Virus record (IMG/VR): IMGVR_UViG_3300043037_000042
Span: 1-59,439 of that record
Source: a virus
Lineage: Duplodnaviria > Caudoviricetes
Length of the DNA stretch: 59,439 bases
Direction: 5' to 3' (one strand)
Shown: positions 3,928 to 59,017 of the stretch, piece by piece
Position numbering within the stretch: the first letter of the stretch is position 1
Layout of the letters: the number at the start of each line of letters is the position of its first letter
Position numbers and translations under genes: made by a program
Notes under the pieces: model-generated
The model's database searches: none
Seen by the model: the letters and a program-made list of their open reading frames with translations, nothing else
Told to the model about the DNA's origin: nothing

Positions 3928-3992
3928 TATTTCACCTCGATTTAATTTAAATATGATTGTGTTTTGTAATCAATCTAATAAATGCTACTTTC

Positions 3993-4862
3993 TTATAATA
4001 CTTTATTAAATATATTATCAACGTCTTGTTTAACGCGTTTCATTGATGTTTGGGCGTAAATTTGAGTTGTTCCAATATTTTCGTGTCCAAGAACTTTTTG
4101 AATTTCATCAAGAGGAACAGAATTTTCAAGAAGCAACATAGCTACACCGTGTCTTAATAAATGGACATGTATATTTTTACTTATCCCTGCTCTTATCGAT
4201 GCTATCTTTACAAATCTTTGTATTGCACCAACCGACCATCTATTGTGTTCTCTTGAAATAAACAAAGCTTCTAAATCATCAGTTCTATTATCTAAATATT
4301 GAAGTATATATTTTTTAGCTTCTTCCGAAAACATACATGGTCTGCCTTTATCCCCTTTACCTATAACAGAAAACTCTCTATCGCTGAAATTCAAATCATT
4401 TCTATTTAATTTGTGAACTTCGCTTACTCTTAAACCAGAAGAAAATAATAAACTAAATAAAGCGAGTCCACGATAATTTTCAATGGACTCAAGATAGTTG
4501 ATTATTTGTTTATATTCTTCTAAAGTTACATGACCTCTTAACTTTCTTCTAACTTTAACCTTTTCGACTTTTGCAAGTGGATTTTTCATATCTAAATATT
4601 CTTTATCTATCATAAACCTAAAGAACGTATTTAAAGTATTATATTTTCTTGACAAAGCTTCATCGCCATTGTGTCTTTCTTCTGTACAATATTGAAAAAA
4701 TCCATCTAAATCAATGTGTGTCAATTTTTCTAATGGTTTATCATTGATGTATTCAAGGAAAACTCCTAAATCCCAACCAAAAGCCTGTCTAGTTCTTTCT
4801 GTTGTTTTGTTACTTCGTAATGATAAATATCTTTTAACTAATTGTTCGTTGCATCTATTCAA
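3993..4862 (-). CDS. Tyrosine recombinase, XerD-like
   Basis: SSGLRVSE (R), GKGDK (K), HLLRH, LGH, TTQIY (Y): full catalytic set; 289 aa with no arm-binding domain. Confidence 0.93.
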   Translation of the reverse strand: MNRCNEQLVKRYLSLRSNKTTERTRQAFGWDLGVFLEYINDKPLEKLTHIDLDGFFQYCTEERHNGDEALSRKYNTLNTFFRFMIDKEYLDMKNPLAKVEKVKVRRKLRGHVTLEEYKQIINYLESIENYRGLALFSLLFSSGLRVSEVHKLNRNDLNFSDREFSVIGKGDKGRPCMFSEEAKKYILQYLDNRTDDLEALFISREHNRWSVGAIQRFVKIASIRAGISKNIHVHLLRHGVAMLLLENSVPLDEIQKVLGHENIGTTQIYAQTSMKRVKQDVDNIFNKVL

Positions 4863-4889
4863 TTACATCACTTCTTTTTTATTTTAATT

Positions 4890-9533: not shown

Positions 9534-11204
9534 TTAATTCAAAACTCCCTTTCTGCGCTTTCCCTTTTTTAGATTCTTAATTTTTTCTTTTTTGTATTTT
9601 TCTATTGGCGTTTCTGGTTCACTGATAGCTTGCGTATTATTTCTAGGGCTACCAATTAACAAATATTTTAGACAGTCAGCTGTATTGTCTATTGCTGAGT
9701 TTCCTGCTATTACATTAGGGTTATTATCCTCAACTACTAATTTAGGTAAATGACTTATTAAATGCTTACAAGTACTAAATATTTGTATCTTAGCTGTTTT
9801 TTTACCAGTTCCATCATCAATATGTTTTAAATATTCATGTATTGTGTCTTTCCCTAGCTTTCTATCTGTGACCGCTCTTACAGTTGGATAATTGAATCCA
9901 GCACTTTTATACATATCTAAAAGACTTTTTCCTGTACCTTTAGCTGTATCTTTGTTAAATGCATCTGCTCCAAATATTACATATTTTAACTTTTCATATG
10001 TATATTCTTCGATTCCATATGTTTCATATCCTATGTGATAGCTGTCGATTTCTTCTTTTACTTGTTCTGTAATATCAATTTTACAATCTTCCATAAACTT
10101 TTTAGCTTGGTCTGTATAATAAATTTTAGGGTCTTTTTTATCTCTTGTATACTCATAATAAATATAAGTAATACCATCTTCTGATAATGCAGCTTTAAAC
10201 CAACAAAACGGGTCGTTTAATCCGTTATCTACAGAACCCCATTTAATCCAATGATCGGGAATTTCAAAAGGTTCACATACATGAATATCTCTTGAAAACT
10301 CTGGAAATGCTGTTAATTCTCCAGCTGATAAAGCTTGTTCTATTGTCTCTGGATATTCTTGTCTCCATGTATTTTTAAAAGTTTTCTTAGTTTGTTCATA
10401 CCATTCTTTTGTTCTTCTAGGGTCTGCATATACGCTTAAAAATATTAAATGAAACCCCATTTCTGCATTATTTTCTAAACAATCAAGTACTATGCTTTCA
10501 AAATAGCTACCTCTTTTGTTGGTTGATAATCCTATTAATTTACCACTATCGGGTCTATTGATAGTAGGTCCGATACCAGCGAATACTAATTCAGCATTTT
10601 CATGGAACGCCCATTCATCAAGTATTATAAGGTCGGCAGTAATAGAACGACCGCTTCGTTCAGTTGATACATAGCCATTTATAGTACTTGTTACCCGTAC
10701 CCCATCTTCTCTAGCTGGATAATATATAATTACTTCATCTGATTTCTTTTCATATAGGTACATACTTCCGTATTGTGCATTTTCTTTGTTGTATTCCTGC
10801 ATAAGCCATTTAGGAAGTCGCATAAGAATATATTCAACTCTATCTATTGCAGCATACATATATTCCTCTGTTTGTGATAATATTGCAACTGTATATTGTT
10901 GAGTACTTAGACAACCATGAGTTCCATATCCTAAAGATAACCACGTCATACCTAATTGTCTTGCTTTTATAAGTATGTTTTTTGAATTTTCTTCTATTTC
11001 TTTTAAAACTCTTTTTTGCTCTGGAAACATTTTAAATAATACAGAACGTTCATCTGGTGTTTTGCCGCTTTTATTTTCTATATACATGTAATTTTCAAAG
11101 AAATATTCTATATCTCTTATAATTTTTCTACGTTCGAGTTCTCTAGTTGCTAAAATTGAAAATGCTTGCTCTGATGTTAATTGTTTCTGTTTTTCATTTG
11201 CCAT
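9534..11204 (-). CDS. terL: Terminase large subunit
   Basis: Walker A KARQLGMT, Walker B IILDE, LST coupling motif, nuclease domain GSVDNG and DNTADCLKY. Confidence 0.93.
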   Translation of the reverse strand: MANEKQKQLTSEQAFSILATRELERRKIIRDIEYFFENYMYIENKSGKTPDERSVLFKMFPEQKRVLKEIEENSKNILIKARQLGMTWLSLGYGTHGCLSTQQYTVAILSQTEEYMYAAIDRVEYILMRLPKWLMQEYNKENAQYGSMYLYEKKSDEVIIYYPAREDGVRVTSTINGYVSTERSGRSITADLIILDEWAFHENAELVFAGIGPTINRPDSGKLIGLSTNKRGSYFESIVLDCLENNAEMGFHLIFLSVYADPRRTKEWYEQTKKTFKNTWRQEYPETIEQALSAGELTAFPEFSRDIHVCEPFEIPDHWIKWGSVDNGLNDPFCWFKAALSEDGITYIYYEYTRDKKDPKIYYTDQAKKFMEDCKIDITEQVKEEIDSYHIGYETYGIEEYTYEKLKYVIFGADAFNKDTAKGTGKSLLDMYKSAGFNYPTVRAVTDRKLGKDTIHEYLKHIDDGTGKKTAKIQIFSTCKHLISHLPKLVVEDNNPNVIAGNSAIDNTADCLKYLLIGSPRNNTQAISEPETPIEKYKKEKIKNLKKGKRRKGVLN

Positions 11205-11457: not shown

Positions 11458-11994
11458 TTACCTCCCTAACAAATAATTTCGCAAAAAGTAATAAAAGGTA
11501 TAGTAGATATATTGTGCCGAATACTTATTGTCTTTCATGAAAACAAATGGAATATTGTATCTCTCGCTAAAACTGTGCAATGTTCCAATAAATGATAACG
11601 GTTCATATTTTGTATTATATTTGTGGTTGATTATATCGTCATATGAGGCATTTTCAATAAGCAAGGTACATTTACCTTTATTTCTTATGAACTCGCTTTC
11701 TATGCGCAATCTATCGTTTGAAAAGTTTCCGCTAAGTTCTTCAAGGCTTGCTTTTCTTTCGATTTTAACTTTATCTGTGAAATATAAATCTCTTTGTATT
11801 CCTAACTCGGTATTAGATGGCAATAAAAAAGAGTAGTCACCTGTTTCGAGCTTTTCTACTATATAAGGTATTTTCTTGGTATCTAACCACTTTGTTATGT
11901 GCGAGTTTTCTTGTTCTCTACTGTCGATTAAAATTACCATGCTTTTTAGTAGTAACTTAACTTCTTTGTCTGTGTACTTGTACATATCTAGCAT
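11458..11994 (-). CDS. ERCC4/XPF-family nuclease domain protein
   Basis: IDSREQ, LETGDY and IERKASLEEL motifs. Confidence 0.88.
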   Translation of the reverse strand: MLDMYKYTDKEVKLLLKSMVILIDSREQENSHITKWLDTKKIPYIVEKLETGDYSFLLPSNTELGIQRDLYFTDKVKIERKASLEELSGNFSNDRLRIESEFIRNKGKCTLLIENASYDDIINHKYNTKYEPLSFIGTLHSFSERYNIPFVFMKDNKYSAQYIYYTFYYFLRNYLLGR

Positions 11995-12006: not shown

Positions 12007-12333
12007 TTAAAGTGCAAATAAAATCAAGTCTATTAAAATATGTAAAGCTTGGTCTATGTATAAATGAGTCGTTAATGCTTTTTTCTTATCTTCAGCATTT
12101 GCTTTGACTTCATCTATTACTAAATGGCTTACAATCAATATGAGTACTTTCCAAATAGCAAATACGCCTATTAATTCAAAACACAATGCCATTCCTAAAC
12201 TATAAATCATTGAGTGAGCTAATAAACTATAAAAGTAATTACCTTTTGTTTGTGTTAAAAACTCACCTTGTAGTGGAAAATCTAACAAGTAGTGTGCTAA
12301 TATAATCCATAAGATTGATTTCATTAAAATCAC
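12007..12333 (-). CDS. DUF3307-like membrane protein
   Basis: AHYLLDFPLQ, SHLVID and IDQALH motifs; several TM helices. Confidence 0.75.
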   Translation of the reverse strand: MILMKSILWIILAHYLLDFPLQGEFLTQTKGNYFYSLLAHSMIYSLGMALCFELIGVFAIWKVLILIVSHLVIDEVKANAEDKKKALTTHLYIDQALHILIDLILFAL

Positions 12334-12341
12334 TTCCTTAT

Positions 12342-12428
12342 TGGCGGAGAATACAGGATTCGAACCTGTGAGACTTTTACATCTAATAGTTTAGCAAACT
12401 ACCACCTTAAACCCTCGGTCAATTCTCC
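12342..12428 (-). tRNA. tRNA-Ser(GCT) with encoded CCA
   Basis: Acceptor GGAGAAT/ATTCTCC-G-CCA; anticodon arm GTAGT-TTGCTAA-ACTAT; long variable arm; T-arm ACAGG-TTCGAAT-CCTGT. Confidence 0.93.
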
Positions 12429-12434
12429 ATAATT

Positions 12435-12462
12435 AAAAGCACCTCAATTAAGAAGTGCTTTT
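12435..12462. terminator. Terminator/processing hairpin
   Basis: AAAAGCAC...GTGCTTTT inverted repeat. Confidence 0.6.
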
Positions 12463-12466
12463 GCTA

Positions 12467-12671
12467 GGTCCATACGCCCTAAAACTCATTGATTTCTCGA
12501 CGTGGCTCAATGAGTAAGGCCGATCTCCTATTTATTTCAATAGGTCATCGCCACCTATAACCGTATCTTGTGGCTTGGCTCGTCAGCTAAGATTTTCCTT
12601 CCAATCATCTAACGGTCAATAACCGAAAACATAGTACATTGGCTGTAATCTTATATAGATTAACTCGGACA
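12467..12671 (-). ncRNA. Candidate structured non-coding RNA (unassigned)
   Basis: ORF-free and GC-richer than its surroundings; closed by GTCC/GGAC, with at least five internal helices and loop-loop complementarity (see findings). Confidence 0.55.
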
Positions 12672-12706
12672 TTTATATAATTAATCGCCTTCCATATAAT
12701 CACTTC

Positions 12707-12907
12707 CTAAATTTGTTTTGTAACTCCACCTTGCTTTTTATATTTTCTATGTCTCATGCATTCTTCTATTCCGTCATAAATTGATAGCGTAAGGTCTAAT
12801 TCTTCACAATTCTTAAAGTCTTGACACATTGGTTTTTTAATATAACAGGCACATATCAATTCTTGATTGTCCCATTTTGTATTGAATGTGAGTTTAATTT
12901 TTGACAC
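12707..12907 (-). CDS. Hypothetical protein
   Basis: GTG start after AGGAG RBS; operon context. Confidence 0.5.
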   Translation of the reverse strand: MSKIKLTFNTKWDNQELICACYIKKPMCQDFKNCEELDLTLSIYDGIEECMRHRKYKKQGGVTKQI

Positions 12908-13519: not shown

Positions 13520-13783
13520 ATCACCTACTTTGTGAAAAAAGTTTGCAATTGGACATTTTTGTCCCGAAACAAAATGCTTGTTTTTATTCAAATTTCAATA
13601 CCTATATTGATTTTTTAGGCGATTTAGTCCTTTTATTAAGTTATTATACTAAAATGGAGGGGAAGCCGACATTTTGTATGCACTTAAATTAACTACTTTT
13701 GATTAATTTCTAGAAAAAAATAAAAAATATATTTTTAAGGGTTTGTTATTTACCCCACCCCCCACTTTGTCGGTAAAATTCTG

Positions 13784-13834
13784 TGTCTTTGGGAATGGAA
13801 TAAATCTTTAACCAATTTTACATGTCTTTGGGAA
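13784..13834 (+). repeat. 12-bp direct repeat TGTCTTTGGGAA x2
   Basis: Copies at 13784-13795 and 13823-13834. Confidence 0.8.
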
Positions 13835-14133
13835 CAGGAGAACCATTATAGATATTTGAAACCCACCCCGGGGTCAATCGGGGATAGGGTACACTCCTAC
13901 ATCTGCATTCACAATCTCCACAATGCCTGTATTTTCAACATGTTTGCCATACCCCTATGCTATACATATTAAATCAAAGGACCTTTTACGCGCACCAAGA
14001 GGGATTTTACAGTAAAGCAGCTAGAGCAATAAAACCTATTTGCATAGGAAAAATTAGGAGGAATACTCTAACTGCATGAAGTATGCAATAATTTAAGGTG
14101 TTTTTGCATATTTGGTGTAGTTCGGTAGTTATT

Positions 14134-14161
14134 ATGTCGCAAAATAAATCTTATATGACTA
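14134..14161. other. dif-shaped candidate tyrosine-recombinase site
   Basis: ATGTCGCAAAA-TAAATC-TTATATGACTA: 11-6-11 imperfect inverted repeat. Confidence 0.4.
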
Positions 14162-14439
14162 ATTACAATTTATTGCATTAAGCATTTGCAATGATTACAG
14201 CAATTATATAAATACCTTTGCGTATTTGCATAAATATTAGTAAAAAACAGTGCATATTTGAAATGATTTTATACATGTAATTTTGTGAATTGATGGTCTG
14301 GATATCGATAAAACCATGCAATATTTTGCACGAAATAAGGTTCTTTTTGTATTTGCTTCTATTTATTCCAAGAATATTCAGTCTTTTCATATCACAAATC
14401 ATTTACCCTTATTTAACAAACGTTCAAATTCCAACAATC

Positions 14440-15072
14440 TTACTCAACTTCGTAATCAATATTATCCAATAGCTCCGTATTAGCATATTTGAGTAATTCC
14501 TCGTCTGGCAAGTTTTGGATCTGATTTACGTTGATATTTACAGTATTTACACTTTCTACTCTATCCTTGTACTTATCACTATATAGATTTTTTAGAGAAA
14601 ATATTAACGCTGTACTATCTGGTACATAGTTTTTTTGCGTAACTGTATTTTTAACAATACGGCCCTTTTCTGGGTCATCTGTTACAACTGTTTGTGATTC
14701 TGTTGCTGTAAATCCTTCCGCTCTCTTTAATAATGCTTTTTCTAACGTATATTTTCTGTTGTCGATGCCTTGTTCGTATGCTTGTTTAAAATCTGCATTA
14801 GTGCTAAGTAATTTATAAAAAGTAGACACAGCCATATCTAACGCTTCTGCTATCTTATAGTTTTCTATTGGTTGTGATGCGTATTCTGTTAATTTATCTA
14901 GATCAACAAATTCCATAGCAGATTTTCTACCGCTATTATGTCTATTGTTTGGTTTTAGTGTTTCTGTTTCTATATTTACATTATCAGAAGCCACAGAATC
15001 ACTTTTAACACTACTTTTTTTACTCTTAGATGTATTTACACTCTTCGACTTCTTACTATTTTTATTAGCCAT
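14440..15072 (-). CDS. Terminase small subunit (probable)
   Basis: HTH IAEALDMAVSTFY, ALLKRAEGF and PDSTALIFSLKN motifs typical of Firmicute TerS; first gene of the leftward late operon; GGAGG RBS. Confidence 0.78.
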   Translation of the reverse strand: MANKNSKKSKSVNTSKSKKSSVKSDSVASDNVNIETETLKPNNRHNSGRKSAMEFVDLDKLTEYASQPIENYKIAEALDMAVSTFYKLLSTNADFKQAYEQGIDNRKYTLEKALLKRAEGFTATESQTVVTDDPEKGRIVKNTVTQKNYVPDSTALIFSLKNLYSDKYKDRVESVNTVNINVNQIQNLPDEELLKYANTELLDNIDYEVE

Positions 15073-15286
15073 TTTGTGACCTCCTCGCATATTAAAATAA
15101 AAAAGCTACATCTCTTTGACATAGCTTTTTAAGTAATTATTCTATTATTTGTTACAAATGCATGTAACTTTGTATCGTAATTGTAACATTTACGCTAGGT
15201 ATAATTAAGTCTAATTTGGTCTAAGTTGCATTTTTCAATATTTTGATGTTATTTTAAATATTACAAACAGTTAATAAAATAATCTA

Positions 15287-17315: not shown

Positions 17316-17447
17316 ACGAGTTTTGAACAATGGTTTAAATGGTATACAGGTTTATCCGTTGAACAATTTAAGAACCTATCATTGTCAGATGAAAAATACG
17401 AAACAGAATTAAACAAATATCAAGAATTATATCAACGATTAAAGTAA
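17316..17447 (+). CDS. 43-aa ORF with ACG at the start position (non-canonical start or pseudogene)
   Basis: AGGAGG, 7 nt, then ACG AGT TTT GAA CAA TGG...; no in-frame ATG. Confidence 0.45.
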   Translation, partial: TSFEQWFKWYTGLSVEQFKNLSLSDEKYETELNKYQELYQRLK

Positions 17448-17549
17448 ATAAAAATAGTGTAGCACAAGCCGACCAAAGCTATTGAGATGCTACACTAACC
17501 ACCAAAAGAGCGGTATAAATACTCTACACTATACCGTTCTATTTGTCAA
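17446..17549 (-). ncRNA. Candidate small antisense RNA unit (promoter + hairpin terminator)
   Basis: TTGACA(17549-17544)-17-TAGAGT; 10-bp stem TAGTGTAGCA/TGCTACACTA with inner AGCT-TTGGTC-GGCT hairpin and T-tract. Confidence 0.5.
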
Positions 17550-17564
17550 TAGAGAGGTATAGAG

Positions 17565-17657
17565 ATGGAAAAAGTATTGTTTATCGGATTGTATGCGCTG
17601 GTATTTTTAATATTAGCTGGCATACTAGAGATAACATTTAAGAATCTTGATTTTTAG
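17565..17657 (+). CDS. 30-aa hydrophobic peptide
   Basis: MEKVLFIGLYALVFLILAGILEITFKNLDF; GAGGT RBS. Confidence 0.6.
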   Translation: MEKVLFIGLYALVFLILAGILEITFKNLDF

Positions 17658-17675
17658 ATTCGGAGGTATGGGGAT

Positions 17676-17843
17676 ATGATGAGGGATATAATAAATGCCA
17701 CAAATAAAGTAAATGCAAGGGTTGTTGACTTAATGTTTATAGGGCATTCTCGGGGATTAAGTTCGGAGGAATATTTAGAACTACAAGAATTAGAAAGAAT
17801 AGCGAAAGATATTGAAAAATGCATAAATAAAAACAAGGAGTGA
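17676..17843 (+). CDS. Hypothetical protein (55 aa)
   Basis: GGAGG RBS; MMRDIINATNKVNARVVDLMF... Confidence 0.55.
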   Translation: MMRDIINATNKVNARVVDLMFIGHSRGLSSEEYLELQELERIAKDIEKCINKNKE

Positions 17844-17847
17844 CAAA

Positions 17848-18030
17848 ATGAAAGAAGAACTAATACCGCTTACAGAGTATGCTAAAATGCATGGAATAAC
17901 ATCTGTAACAGCTAGACAAAGAGCAGCAAGAGGAAGTTTTAAAACAGCTAGAAAGATGGGTCGAGATTGGTTTATTGATAAAAACGAGCCATATGTCGAT
18001 AATCGTTTCAAAAAGAAAACAGAGGAATAG
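17848..18030 (+). CDS. Small HTH (excisionase/HTH_17-like) DNA-binding protein
   Basis: LTEYAKMHGITSVTARQRA..G...ARKMGRDWFI. Confidence 0.75.
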   Translation: MKEELIPLTEYAKMHGITSVTARQRAARGSFKTARKMGRDWFIDKNEPYVDNRFKKKTEE

Positions 18031-18045
18031 TTCCCCTGTTTTTTT

Positions 18046-19524
18046 GAGAGTGTGAAATAATCTCTGTAAAATAACTTTCTATGATAAATTTCTAAGCACA
18101 TATATAAAATAATAAAGTAACGAATTATCATATATGCTTAGAAACAGTATAATTAAAAGTTTATAGTATGTCAACTAACACCCTACTAAAAGGGTGTTAG
18201 CTTTTTTGAACTAAAATTGCTATCTAAGTCGACCTTCAAACATAATTGAAAGTTCACCATAAACCTTGCCCCAATTTCTTAATGGCATAGTCCACTTTTT
18301 AGTAGCTTCAAATGTAGATAAATACAATGCCTTAAGAAGGGAAATATCACTAGGAAACACACTTCTCTGGCGGTTTAATCTACGGTATGTACTGTTTAAA
18401 CTTTCGATAGCATTTGTGGTATATATTACTTTTCTTACTTCAGCTGAATACTTGAAAATTGGGCTTATTACATCCCAGTTAGCTTCCCAACTTTTCATTG
18501 CATTAGGATAATGAGCATTCCAGGTTTCTGTAACCTCAAGCATACGCTCATAACCATTAACTTCGCTAGGAGCCTGATAGATGGTTTTTAGATCTGCAGC
18601 AAATTTCTTTTTATCTTTATCAGCAACATATTTCAATGTATTTCTAACTTGATGCACTATGCAACGTTGATATTCTGTATTAGGAAATGCTGCATTTACG
18701 GCTTCTTTCATTCCTGTCAAACCATCAGCGCATAGAATCAGAATATCCTTTACACCTCTGTTTTTTAGTTCGTTGAGAGTGCTTAACCAGAACTTGCTGC
18801 TTTCATTTTCGCCAATTTGAATACTTAACACTTCTTTATGTCCTTCATCATTAATTCCCAATACTACATAAGCTGCAAGCTTTTGAATTACATTGTTGTT
18901 ACGTACCGAAAAATGAACAGCATCTACAAATACTATTGGATAGACTTTTGAAAGAGGGCGATGTTGCCAGTCCTCTATCTCAGGAAGAAGTTTATCTGTA
19001 ATATCTGATATTAATCCTTCGCTTACTTCGAAGCCATAAATATCTTCAATTTGCTCTGAAATTTGACGTGTTGATAGTCCTTTAGCATACATTGATATTA
19101 TCTTATCTTCAATATGAGAAATGTCCTTCTGACGTTTTTTTACGATCTGTGGTTCAAAAGAAGATTCCCTGTCTTGAGGGACTTCAATATCAAACTCACC
19201 ATACTTACTTCTAACAGATTTTGACTTTAGCCCGTTGCGTGCATTGCTGTTGACTGAGCGTTCATATGCCTCATAACCTAAATGGTTGTCCATTTCTGCC
19301 TCAAGCATACTTTCGATTGTTCCGCCCAAAAGATCTTTTAATGCATCTTGGATATCATCTGCTGTCTTAATGTCATATTCATTAATTAATGACGCGATGA
19401 TATTTTGTTTTCCTTCTGATAATCTTGTCCTTCTCTTTGCCATAAAAAAAGCCTCCTATAATTTTTATTTTATCATAGAAAGCTATTTTTTAAAATTAAT
19501 TTACAGACTTTTCTTCACAGGCTC
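18046..19524 (-). mobile_element. IS256-family insertion sequence (1479 bp)
   Basis: Imperfect terminal IRs GAGAGTGTGAAATAATCTCTGTAAA / GAGCCTGTGAAGAAAAGTCTGTAAA; 8-bp target duplication GTTTTTTT at 18038-18045 and 19525-19532. Confidence 0.93.
18220..19443 (-). CDS. IS256 (Mutator-like) DDE transposase
   Basis: VFVDA, CADGL, QRCIVH and YTTNAIESLN motifs. Confidence 0.96.
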   Translation of the reverse strand: MAKRRTRLSEGKQNIIASLINEYDIKTADDIQDALKDLLGGTIESMLEAEMDNHLGYEAYERSVNSNARNGLKSKSVRSKYGEFDIEVPQDRESSFEPQIVKKRQKDISHIEDKIISMYAKGLSTRQISEQIEDIYGFEVSEGLISDITDKLLPEIEDWQHRPLSKVYPIVFVDAVHFSVRNNNVIQKLAAYVVLGINDEGHKEVLSIQIGENESSKFWLSTLNELKNRGVKDILILCADGLTGMKEAVNAAFPNTEYQRCIVHQVRNTLKYVADKDKKKFAADLKTIYQAPSEVNGYERMLEVTETWNAHYPNAMKSWEANWDVISPIFKYSAEVRKVIYTTNAIESLNSTYRRLNRQRSVFPSDISLLKALYLSTFEATKKWTMPLRNWGKVYGELSIMFEGRLR

Positions 19525-38094: not shown

Positions 38095-38808
38095 CTAAAT
38101 ATTAATTTGATTATTACACTGTTTAATTTCGCAATTTAACGCAAAAGGTGTCTTATATTCACTAATCATTTTTAAAGCGATGTCGGTTTGATTTCTCTTG
38201 ATTGCTTTGTAACTTGTTACCGCAAATTCTCTTTTAAGTTGTCTATGTATGTCTGAATAAATTTTGCCTCTAATAGATTTATCATTGTACGCTTTAGCAT
38301 CTTTACCGCCTAAACACTCGACACCTTTTTTCTTTACTGAGTAAGTTATCTTGTCGCATTCGATACCTAGAATAGGCATGTCCAATTTAAAATCTTGTAG
38401 GTCTTTGTTTACTGCATCTACTTTGTTGTCAATTTCTTTTAAAGCTTCAAGTTGTAATTCCAGCAATTGTATAGGCGTTTTAGGTTCAAGTTGATATGTT
38501 CCTGTTTTTCTTATTGATGGTATGACTTCGTGAGTAATCCATCTTTTAAAATTCTTAGCCTCTTGTTTTCTGCTACCTAATACAAGTGAATACAAACCGT
38601 ATTCGTTTACAAAATTAGTTTCACCAGATAAGCCTCCTATGTTTAACATAGTCACCTCGTCAGCATCTAATCTTTGCATTGCTTGTGTTGTGTTTTTAAT
38701 ATCCAAAATGTCACATGTATCTTTTGCTGCGAACCATGGTTCTCCGTCTTTCTCAATTACTCTTATTTCTCCAAATTCTTTGTTGTTAAAAATCTTTAGT
38801 TCGTTCAT
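38095..38808 (-). CDS. Antirepressor (BRO-N + ORF6C)
   Basis: FGEIRV..GEPWF.AKD, FKRWITHEVIPSIRKTG; C-terminal REFAVTSYKAIKR. Confidence 0.88.
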   Translation of the reverse strand: MNELKIFNNKEFGEIRVIEKDGEPWFAAKDTCDILDIKNTTQAMQRLDADEVTMLNIGGLSGETNFVNEYGLYSLVLGSRKQEAKNFKRWITHEVIPSIRKTGTYQLEPKTPIQLLELQLEALKEIDNKVDAVNKDLQDFKLDMPILGIECDKITYSVKKKGVECLGGKDAKAYNDKSIRGKIYSDIHRQLKREFAVTSYKAIKRNQTDIALKMISEYKTPFALNCEIKQCNNQINI

Positions 38809-38833
38809 GTTTTTCTCCTTTGTTTTTTATTTT

Positions 38834-38862
38834 TTGACATATTTTTACTTTCGCTATATAAT
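38834..38862 (+). promoter_or_regulatory. Consensus SigA promoter
   Basis: TTGACA-17 bp-TATAAT. Confidence 0.8.
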
Positions 38863-38880
38863 TATAGTGGAGGTGATTAT

Positions 38881-39048
38881 ATGTCTGAATTTAGTACATT
38901 TCCTAAAGATAAAACATCTGCGTTGACAATGCTTTATCTAGAAAAACAAGATTTGTCCTATCTTTCTCCAGCTGAATTAGCTGAAAAATACGATGAAATC
39001 TATAAGGAAATATCAAATTATTATGAATCAATGCGTTACAAGTATTAG
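38881..39048 (+). CDS. 55-aa hypothetical protein, counter-oriented
   Basis: Not in the track. GGAGGTG RBS after the promoter; MSEFSTFPKDKTSALTMLYLEKQDLSYLSPAELAEKYDEIYKEI... Confidence 0.75.
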   Translation: MSEFSTFPKDKTSALTMLYLEKQDLSYLSPAELAEKYDEIYKEISNYYESMRYKY

Positions 39049-58603: not shown

Positions 58604-59017
58604 TCACCTTCCCATGTGAAAGTATTTCTTGCCTGTTACAATTTTATCTTTAACATTATTTGCAAAATCATATATCAAGTCTTTTTCTTTTTTATTGGCG
58701 TTTACCTCTCTTTGTAATTCTTCTTTCTCTAAAATATCCATCTTTTCTCTAAAACCAAACTCTGTGCGATTATCCGCTCTTTTTAACATAAGTATTAATT
58801 CGCTATCCAAATACGAACTACCTACGCAATATGTAGGTAATTTAGATGGAAAAAAAGAAGAAGTATGAATTTCATACCTCTTCCTGTTTGGATTAAAGAA
58901 AAGAACTAAGTCTTTGTCATACTTTTCAATTCTATTAGCTATGTTGTAACTATCGCTTGTTATAAGCTTATATCCTAATGAAGTGAATCGGTTGATAAGT
59001 AATTCTTTTCTTCTCAT
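58604..59017 (-). CDS. Hypothetical virion-associated protein
   Basis: Start MRRKELL after AGGAGG; follows the capsid gene. Confidence 0.6.
   Translation of the reverse strand: MRRKELLINRFTSLGYKLITSDSYNIANRIEKYDKDLVLFFNPNRKRYEIHTSSFFPSKLPTYCVGSSYLDSELILMLKRADNRTEFGFREKMDILEKEELQREVNANKKEKDLIYDFANNVKDKIVTGKKYFHMGR

Follow-up and report, generated by a model that had tools for sequence, protein, structure and literature searches.

A near-invariant 47-nucleotide non-coding core upstream of nuclease and terminase genes in a narrow group of temperate phages

The window analysed here comprises an entire virus record of IMG/VR (59,439 bp, rated complete), whose DNA is present in two shale-gas metagenome runs. 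Of the sequencing runs listed as containing it, three are of DNA and none of RNA, and their aligned contigs give tRNA-like pieces only, the phage contigs themselves being absent. The minus strand carries nearly all of its genes. The phage encodes a CI-like repressor and an integrase, and the surroundings of the locus are AT-rich, with a G+C content of ~30%. The phage group, known from subsurface and shale samples, has Clostridia-like relatives. Two relatives are classed as proviruses; the group is thus considered temperate. The minus-strand gene order is TerS, 850 nt of non-coding DNA, a 225-aa winged-helix (wHTH) protein, a 66-aa ORF, the candidate region, a hairpin, tRNA-Ser, DUF3307, an ERCC4 nuclease, a 78-aa protein, and TerL. 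The original prediction placed a single unassigned multi-helix RNA of about 205 nt in the candidate region, immediately upstream of the tRNA gene. The features of the locus are as follows.

14440–15090, minus strand: TerS gene (phrog_309, E 3.4e-25)
Between TerS and the 66-aa ORF, minus strand: gene for the 225-aa wHTH protein, with weak matches to RepL and replication initiators
12707–12907, minus strand: 66-aa Cys-rich ORF, located 5’ of the core in 3/3 loci that show that side
12681–12695, minus strand: four-codon mini-ORF (MEGD, stop), behind the phage’s usual ribosome-binding junction AGGAAGTGATT
12597–12680, minus strand: window-specific 5’ flank with the GTCC strand, the TAATCT/AGATTA hairpin and the CCAAT/ATTGG helix; unalignable to the three homologues
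12550–12596, minus strand: near-invariant non-coding core of 47 nt, defined by alignment of four sequences
12574–12591, plus strand: small hairpin on the strand opposite the core, with a perfect 7-bp stem (one G.U) followed by AUUUU; terminator-like
12476–12549, minus strand: window-specific 3’ flank with two hairpins, not present in the homologues
12435–12462, minus strand: 11-bp hairpin with A- and U-tracts on both sides (-15.2 kcal/mol, z -3.65), 6 nt before the tRNA
12342–12428, minus strand: tRNA-Ser (GCT) (ARAGORN; Rfam tRNA, 55.1 bits)
11458–11994, minus strand: ERCC4-domain nuclease gene (Pfam ERCC4, E 1.1e-15), located 3’ of the core in 4/4 loci
9534–11204, minus strand: TerL gene

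The TerS and TerL genes are ~3.2 kb apart with other genes between them, a layout also found in the relative L007. The 850 nt between TerS and the wHTH gene (13592–14439) contain no credible ORF; they include a G+C bump of ~40% at 13800–14000, G-runs, and a well-folding part at 13982–14227 on the plus strand. Terminator-like hairpins on the gene strand are located before TerS (15130), after TerS (14333), at 12435–12462, and among the later late genes (3699 and 812). Those around TerS lie upstream of the core, so the late region as a whole does not begin with the core. With hairpins on either side, the wHTH gene, the 66-aa gene and the core of the window have the look of one unit. The junction motif AGGAAGTGATT that precedes the MEGD mini-ORF also precedes the DUF3307 and ERCC4 genes, and the mini-ORF looks like the remnant of a gene start at a recombination joint, the gene itself having likely been lost upon insertion of a non-coding block.

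The 66-aa protein belongs to a family represented by three clusters in a large protein search, five variants altogether; two further variants, P0002 and P0003, are encoded on contigs of 3.1 kb (ENA) and 3.8 kb (Logan). Its predicted structure has a mean pLDDT of 56.6, too poor for a structure search, and inspection of 10 nearby ORFs reveals no sigma factor or known regulator. Distant homologues (34–43% identity) are encoded at 3974–4186 of L172 (NZ_CP148603.1) and 4001–4192 of L173 (NZ_CP086150.1). In these Clostridium perfringens / C. estertheticum records of 50–57 kb, which are filed as plasmids, the homologue is separated from the terminase genes that follow it by one small gene, with no long spacer. 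L172 and L173 may be phage-plasmids, since both contain terminase genes and L172 a portal gene. These homologues point to Clostridia-type hosts for the phage group.

All of the complementary segments on which the predicted RNA was based are present at their minus-strand positions. The confirmed pairs are GTCC/GGAC, which would close the structure; the TAATCT/AGATTA hairpin (12662–12646); CCAAT/ATTGG around CGGT/ACCG; TCTT/AAGA around GCT-GACG-AGC; ATACG/CGTAT; ATAGGT/ACCTAT, in competition with CCTATT/AATAGG; and GCCTT-ACTCATTGA/TCAATGAGT-AGGGC (12520–12476). The hairpin before the tRNA (12462–12435), the complementarity of GTGGC with two GCCAC segments and of GACG with CGTC, and the CUGACGA box followed by GCCA...UGGC and GAUG are likewise confirmed.

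The expectation that the 205 nt fold better than shuffled sequence also holds for the segment as a whole, at -57.5 kcal/mol versus -44.2 +/- 4.0 for 200 dinucleotide shuffles (z -3.29, 0/200 as good), but the signal is local to the 3’ flank. By part, the z-scores are -3.30 for the two clean hairpins of the 3’ flank (12470–12547; 1/200 shuffles as good), -3.65 for the terminal hairpin (12426–12472), +0.12 for the 5’ flank (12597–12674), and -0.07 for the central 58 nt (12545–12602). The fold signal of the 205 nt therefore derives from two window-specific hairpins in the 3’ flank, to which the 5’ flank and the centre contribute nothing. These hairpins are CCUAUU/AAUAGG (12544–12527) and a 9-bp ACUCAUUGA stem with GCCUU/AGGGC (12520–12476). 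The opposite strand of the 205 nt beats its shuffles as well (z -2.74). When the genome is scanned in 2890 segments of 205 nt on both strands, six reach -57.5 kcal/mol, three overlapping the locus and three at 18.0–18.4 kb, and the GC-corrected fold residual of the locus is -2.9 SD.

The best-folding 205-nt segments of the genome lie at 18000–18370 on the minus strand, where the residual falls to -5.2 SD. They overlap the 3’ end of a transposase gene of the Mutator family (IS256-type; 18220–19443; Pfam Transposase_mut, E 4.5e-112) together with the sequence directly beyond it, and the presence of this gene indicates an insertion sequence inside the phage. Residuals of -3 to -3.9 SD, beyond G+C expectation, also occur in the genome scan at 58713–58917 (minus strand), 38787–39032 (plus strand), and 17426–17712.

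An exact 22-nt pattern from the centre of the candidate is found in three contigs of a metagenome collection (L131, L132 and L133), all from a single metagenome. The three contigs represent distinct phage genotypes, with flanking genes 59–89% identical to those of the window and among themselves. The order of 66-aa ORF, spacer, ERCC4 nuclease and TerL is kept in the homologous contigs; the core lies on the coding strand upstream of the ERCC4 gene in all four loci, and TerL is next in the three contigs that reach that far. L131 is truncated at its 5’ side just ahead of the element, as expected if the assembly graph breaks where co-occurring strains share sequence. L132 is truncated at its 3’ side before TerL and contains an extra 53-aa ORF between the 66-aa ORF and the core.

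Alignment of the four sequences reveals that 46 of the 47 columns of the core are identical, including an invariant run of 32 nt. The differences consist of a single A>G change (12564) and one 2-nt insertion, both within the large loop between GCCAC and GUGGC; if changes were evenly spread, the chance of this placement is estimated at ~1 in 10. Three-sequence alignments of the flanking genes give 59–89% pairwise identity and longest invariant runs of 11–14 nt. Outside the core, the spacers are unalignable except for 56 nt common to L133 and L132. The G+C content of the core is 47%, versus ~30% in the region, and the core occurs once per genome with no related copies. The firm conclusion from this alignment is that the core is strongly constrained at the nucleotide level.

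The 56-nt block shared by L133 (764–819) and L132 (559–614) begins directly after the preceding stop codon and contains a CCUAAC/GUUAGG hairpin. This block, which is not part of the core, gives a sub-threshold match to the abiF RNA motif (RF03085; 25.5 bits against a threshold of 37, E 0.28).

Within the core, a small hairpin, CUUAGCU-GACG-AGCCAAG, has a stem of 7 bp in which one position is an A.C mismatch in the sense orientation and a G.U pair in the antisense orientation. It is followed by GCCAC, a loop of 15–17 nt, and GUGGC. The segments AUCUU and AAGAU interleave with the GCCAC/GUGGC stem, so that a pseudoknot of the form AUCUU...GCCAC-AAGAU...GUGGC is possible; two complementary 5-mers in 47 nt are, by our estimate, about what chance provides. 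Folded by itself, the core exhibits no excess stability (z -0.07 to -1.03 across the four copies), and the antisense core gives z -1.51. None of the eight consensus pairs varies, so that covariation speaks neither for nor against any pairing in the core.

The homologous loci do not bear out a multi-helix RNA of 205 nt. The 47 nt alone are common to the three homologues, in all of which the peripheral helices are missing: the closing stem, the TAATCT hairpin, the CCAAT/ATTGG helix, the CCTATT hairpin, and the long ACTCATTGA hairpin. The competition of ATAGGT/ACCTAT with CCTATT/AATAGG is found in the window alone of the four copies, and the homologous spacers fold as their shuffles do (z -0.45, -0.45, and -0.51). 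What survives of the original prediction is a genuine non-coding element without an Rfam family, made up of its TCTT/AAGA, GCT-GACG-AGC, GCCAC/GTGGC and CUGACGA parts; its length of 205 nt does not survive. Judged from these alignments, the candidate is not one RNA but a mosaic of a window-specific 5’ piece, the 47-nt core, two window-specific hairpins, and a hairpin-plus-tRNA module common to other phages. The ORF stump upstream and the L007-type hairpin module downstream indicate that this mosaic was built by recombination around the core. There is a methodological lesson in this locus: a strong single-sequence fold (z -3.3) beside a tRNA consists mostly of lineage-specific hairpins, and the truly conserved part carries no thermodynamic signal.

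The GGAC segment and the hairpin, predicted to form the 3’ end of the RNA, are instead a separate module that also occurs in a relative without the element and before a different tRNA. This relative, L007, contains the same hairpin (4838–4866) and ~25 nt before it ahead of tRNA-Thr, and it does not contain the core. The hairpin at 12435–12462 is terminator-like in either direction, and its stem sequence forms a terminator-like hairpin in unrelated viral contigs too; a search anchored on it gives 21 matches, of which L007’s own record is the sole related one. In both phages the hairpin lies 5–6 nt before the tRNA, Ser-GCT in the window and Thr-TGT in L007, and the gap leaves no space for a promoter. 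As the tRNA of the window begins 6 nt past a terminator-type hairpin, its expression needs read-through, as would that of the genes beyond it. Nor is the association of the element with a tRNA gene constant: tRNA-Ser in the window is replaced by tRNA-Thr in L133 and L131, and L132 has no tRNA at this position. A terminator-type hairpin follows the core by ~90–190 nt in two of the four loci (the window and L132), and a terminator scan shows none between the core and the tRNA in L133 and L131.

Further copies of the core were sought widely. A query of GenBank phages with a 501-nt region returns only tRNA matches, in 12 records; the core is not found among PLSDB plasmids; and of two scans of IMG/VR with core patterns, one gave 0 matches and the other 32, all unrelated. 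Relatives identified through TerL, wHTH and ERCC4 do not contain the core as judged by BLAST, approximate matching, and a covariance model, R1. The closest of these by TerL or wHTH are L002, L007/L009, L008, L006, and the MAG prophages L094 and L095. Across 21 sources, R1 recovers the four known copies only, other matches being at or below 15 bits except for one of 16 bits inside an ORF of G002. Among 801 bacterial genomes (401 of the order of G005 and 400 of its class), just chance matches of 19–37 nt occur, and two that were inspected are both within coding sequence. At the equivalent position, the L002 spacer has no similarity to the element and gives a fold z of -1.36. The core is also absent upstream of more distant ERCC4 genes; because the distant homologues are without it, the core is restricted to a narrow phage group and is not tied to the 66-aa or ERCC4 family generally.

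The original prediction could not be matched to a known motif, and this is confirmed: at the gathering thresholds of Rfam 15, the candidate region matches the tRNA model only. Permissive scans (12300–12800 at E<=10, and L131–L133 at E<=1) yield chance-level matches, and no hammerhead, other ribozyme, riboswitch, GOLLD or ROOL is listed for 12300–12800 at E<=10. The resemblance to a hammerhead core noted in the original prediction is not sustained. Its CUGANGA-type box, CUGACGA, is invariant in 4/4 copies, but the position of the GAAA box after GGUGGC reads GAUG, GACA, GAAA and UAAA, no hammerhead model matches at E<=10 over 12300–12800 or at E<=1 in L131–L133, and no stem I/III junction with a cleavage site is seen. 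An attP, a cos site, a group II intron domain V, a guanidine-III riboswitch and a sigma-54 promoter were also considered and dropped, there being no match or suitable position.

Two readings of the core lead, neither of them with a strong claim. The one we tentatively favour is that the core is a cis-acting regulatory site, read as nascent RNA, ahead of the packaging genes. Its conservation, position, sense orientation and lack of an Rfam family are observed; that it acts as RNA, and what it controls, we infer. The core would lie within a sense transcript running from the 66-aa gene into the tRNA, ERCC4 nuclease and TerL genes, and would present two short hairpins that may interleave into a pseudoknot. 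This RNA may be bound by a protein or by RNA polymerase, and binding would control read-through, processing or translation into the packaging genes. It is conceivable, though rather unlikely, that the core represents a new kind of compact phage cis-RNA: a two-hairpin or pseudoknot module recognised on the nascent transcript that licenses read-through or processing into the tRNA, nuclease and terminase genes, and that stays invariant while its surroundings are swapped.

Several observations favour the RNA-site reading. First, the core is invariant amid diverged genes and unalignable flanks. Second, its position and sense orientation are fixed, and its G+C content exceeds that of the region. Third, its changes are confined to a loop; a 2-bp shift in spacing would be harmless in an RNA loop and awkward for a dimer-bound DNA palindrome. 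Fourth, a terminator-type hairpin lies downstream in two of the four loci, and conAn provides a precedent. Other observations weaken it. The core lacks excess stability and 0/8 of its pairs covary, and its small hairpin contains the A.C mismatch on the sense strand and is better formed on the antisense strand. No terminator is found in L133 and L131, and hairpins are located upstream around TerS. Finally, the relatives L002 and L007 do without the core, and one metagenome supplied three of the four copies.

The second reading, of almost equal likelihood, takes the core for a site that acts as DNA. Such a site could be a promoter, late or regulated, together with the region transcribed first from it (Q-utilisation-like), an operator, a pac-like site for the terminase or nuclease, or a recombination site at a module boundary. 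Contiguous invariance that includes the predicted loop bases, in the absence of thermodynamic structure, is what a DNA site would exhibit. All four copies open with NAAAAT, a minimal -10-like hexamer, and in the window TTGACC is located 16 nt upstream of it, scoring 9/12 in a promoter scan. However, a sense-strand promoter scan finds no promoter at the core, and no -35 element, in L131, L132 or L133; the hexamer differs in its first base (G, T, C, and T); and promoter-like matches are no commoner in the window than in shuffles (68 versus 73.8). A tandem AGCCA-AGCCA inside the core also favours a DNA site; against one, the core occurs a single time per genome without related copies, and its GCCAC–GTGGC spacing differs by 2 bp between copies. 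The core adjoins nuclease and terminase genes; the TerS gene is 2 kb off. L133 and L132 have the left flank of the core in common and not the right, as expected of crossovers at the core.

The remaining explanations follow behind the RNA-site and DNA-site readings. It is unlikely that the core is the 3’ end of an antisense sRNA transcribed from the plus strand, with two stem-loops of which the second is a Rho-independent terminator (CUUGGCU-CGUC-AGCUAAG + AUUUU), acting on the sense transcript. A terminator scan flags this plus-strand hairpin and its T-run in 4/4 copies, versus 0.2–0.6 expected per region; the stem is perfect on the plus strand only, where a G.U replaces the sense A.C; and the antisense core folds slightly better than the sense core (z -1.51 versus -0.07). 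Against this, a promoter-like site upstream on the plus strand is found in no copy, the would-be 5’ part is not conserved, and the U-tract is merely 4–5 long. Moreover, a plus-strand transcript entering from the late-gene side of the window would first meet the two-way hairpin at 12435–12462.

It is quite improbable that the core has no function of its own, whether as a short piece that co-occurring phages have lately exchanged or as what is left of a small coding frame. The origin of three copies in one metagenome is compatible with exchange, as are the mosaic gene identities, with the window and L131 being 59% identical in ERCC4 and 77.5% identical at the 5’ end of TerL. Yet exchange would have to have occurred several times independently, and with exact boundaries, to leave 47 nt flanked by unalignable sequence in four genotypes. 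In favour of a coding remnant, every one of the four copies has a short open frame, KILADEPSHK(I/M)RL, spanning the core. The four copies of this frame do not share a start codon or ribosome-binding site; it ranges from 17 to 51 codons and contains zero synonymous changes, its sole substitution being non-synonymous, which is the opposite of a coding pattern.

That the whole 205 nt form a single structured and autonomous RNA, be it a new large ncRNA or a tRNA-associated hammerhead-like ribozyme, is very improbable: the segment is among the best-folding stretches of the genome, has a G+C content above its surroundings, and contains the CUGACGA box before a GCCA/UGGC stem, but three homologues retain 47 of its 205 nt and none of its peripheral helices, their spacers fold as shuffles do, the GAAA box is variable with no ribozyme, GOLLD or ROOL match, and the closing GGAC strand belongs to the module of L007, which has none of the rest. 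The firm result is thus negative for the 205-nt RNA and positive for a constrained element of 47 nt. Should the core function as an RNA or DNA site, it would mark the way in which a scarcely sampled group of temperate phages turns on or insulates its packaging genes, and it would be a compact, portable control element.

As in a hammerhead ribozyme, the CUGACGA box stands directly before a GCCA...UGGC stem; unlike in a hammerhead, the GAAA box is not conserved, and no variation is seen in the would-be stem II and its loop, a part that differs among real hammerheads. GOLLD and ROOL are large phage-associated ncRNAs, hundreds of nt long, that are found beside tRNA genes. The core resembles them in being non-coding and phage-borne and in adjoining a tRNA gene in three of the four copies. 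However, its conserved part is 47 nt and not hundreds, it has no Rfam match, and the tRNA differs or is missing. The species 1 and 2 RNAs of T4 are stable small RNAs co-transcribed with phage tRNA genes. They too are non-coding and directly upstream of a phage tRNA, and RNase P cleavage would define a 3’ end here; in contrast, one copy of the core is without a tRNA, and in the window a hairpin terminator intervenes.

The closest likeness is to the antitermination sites lambda nut, HK022 put and pLS20 conAn2, and it is one of position and architecture alone. A terminator follows the core in two of the four copies only, the core is not promoter-proximal as far as is visible, and no relation is detected between the 66-aa protein and ConAn1, N or Q. 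The published description of pLS20 conAn has a protein gene followed by a spacer of 260–600 bp, in which antitermination requires a GC-rich segment of 16 bp together with a stem-loop (PMC8191782). As described there, the essential parts of conAn2 sit in a much longer, poorly conserved spacer (PMC8191782). Like nut, put and conAn2 as these sources present them, the core is a short constrained cis element with small stem-loops in a long same-strand operon of a mobile element, with a small protein gene before it and terminator hairpins after it (PMC8191782, PMC11658703).
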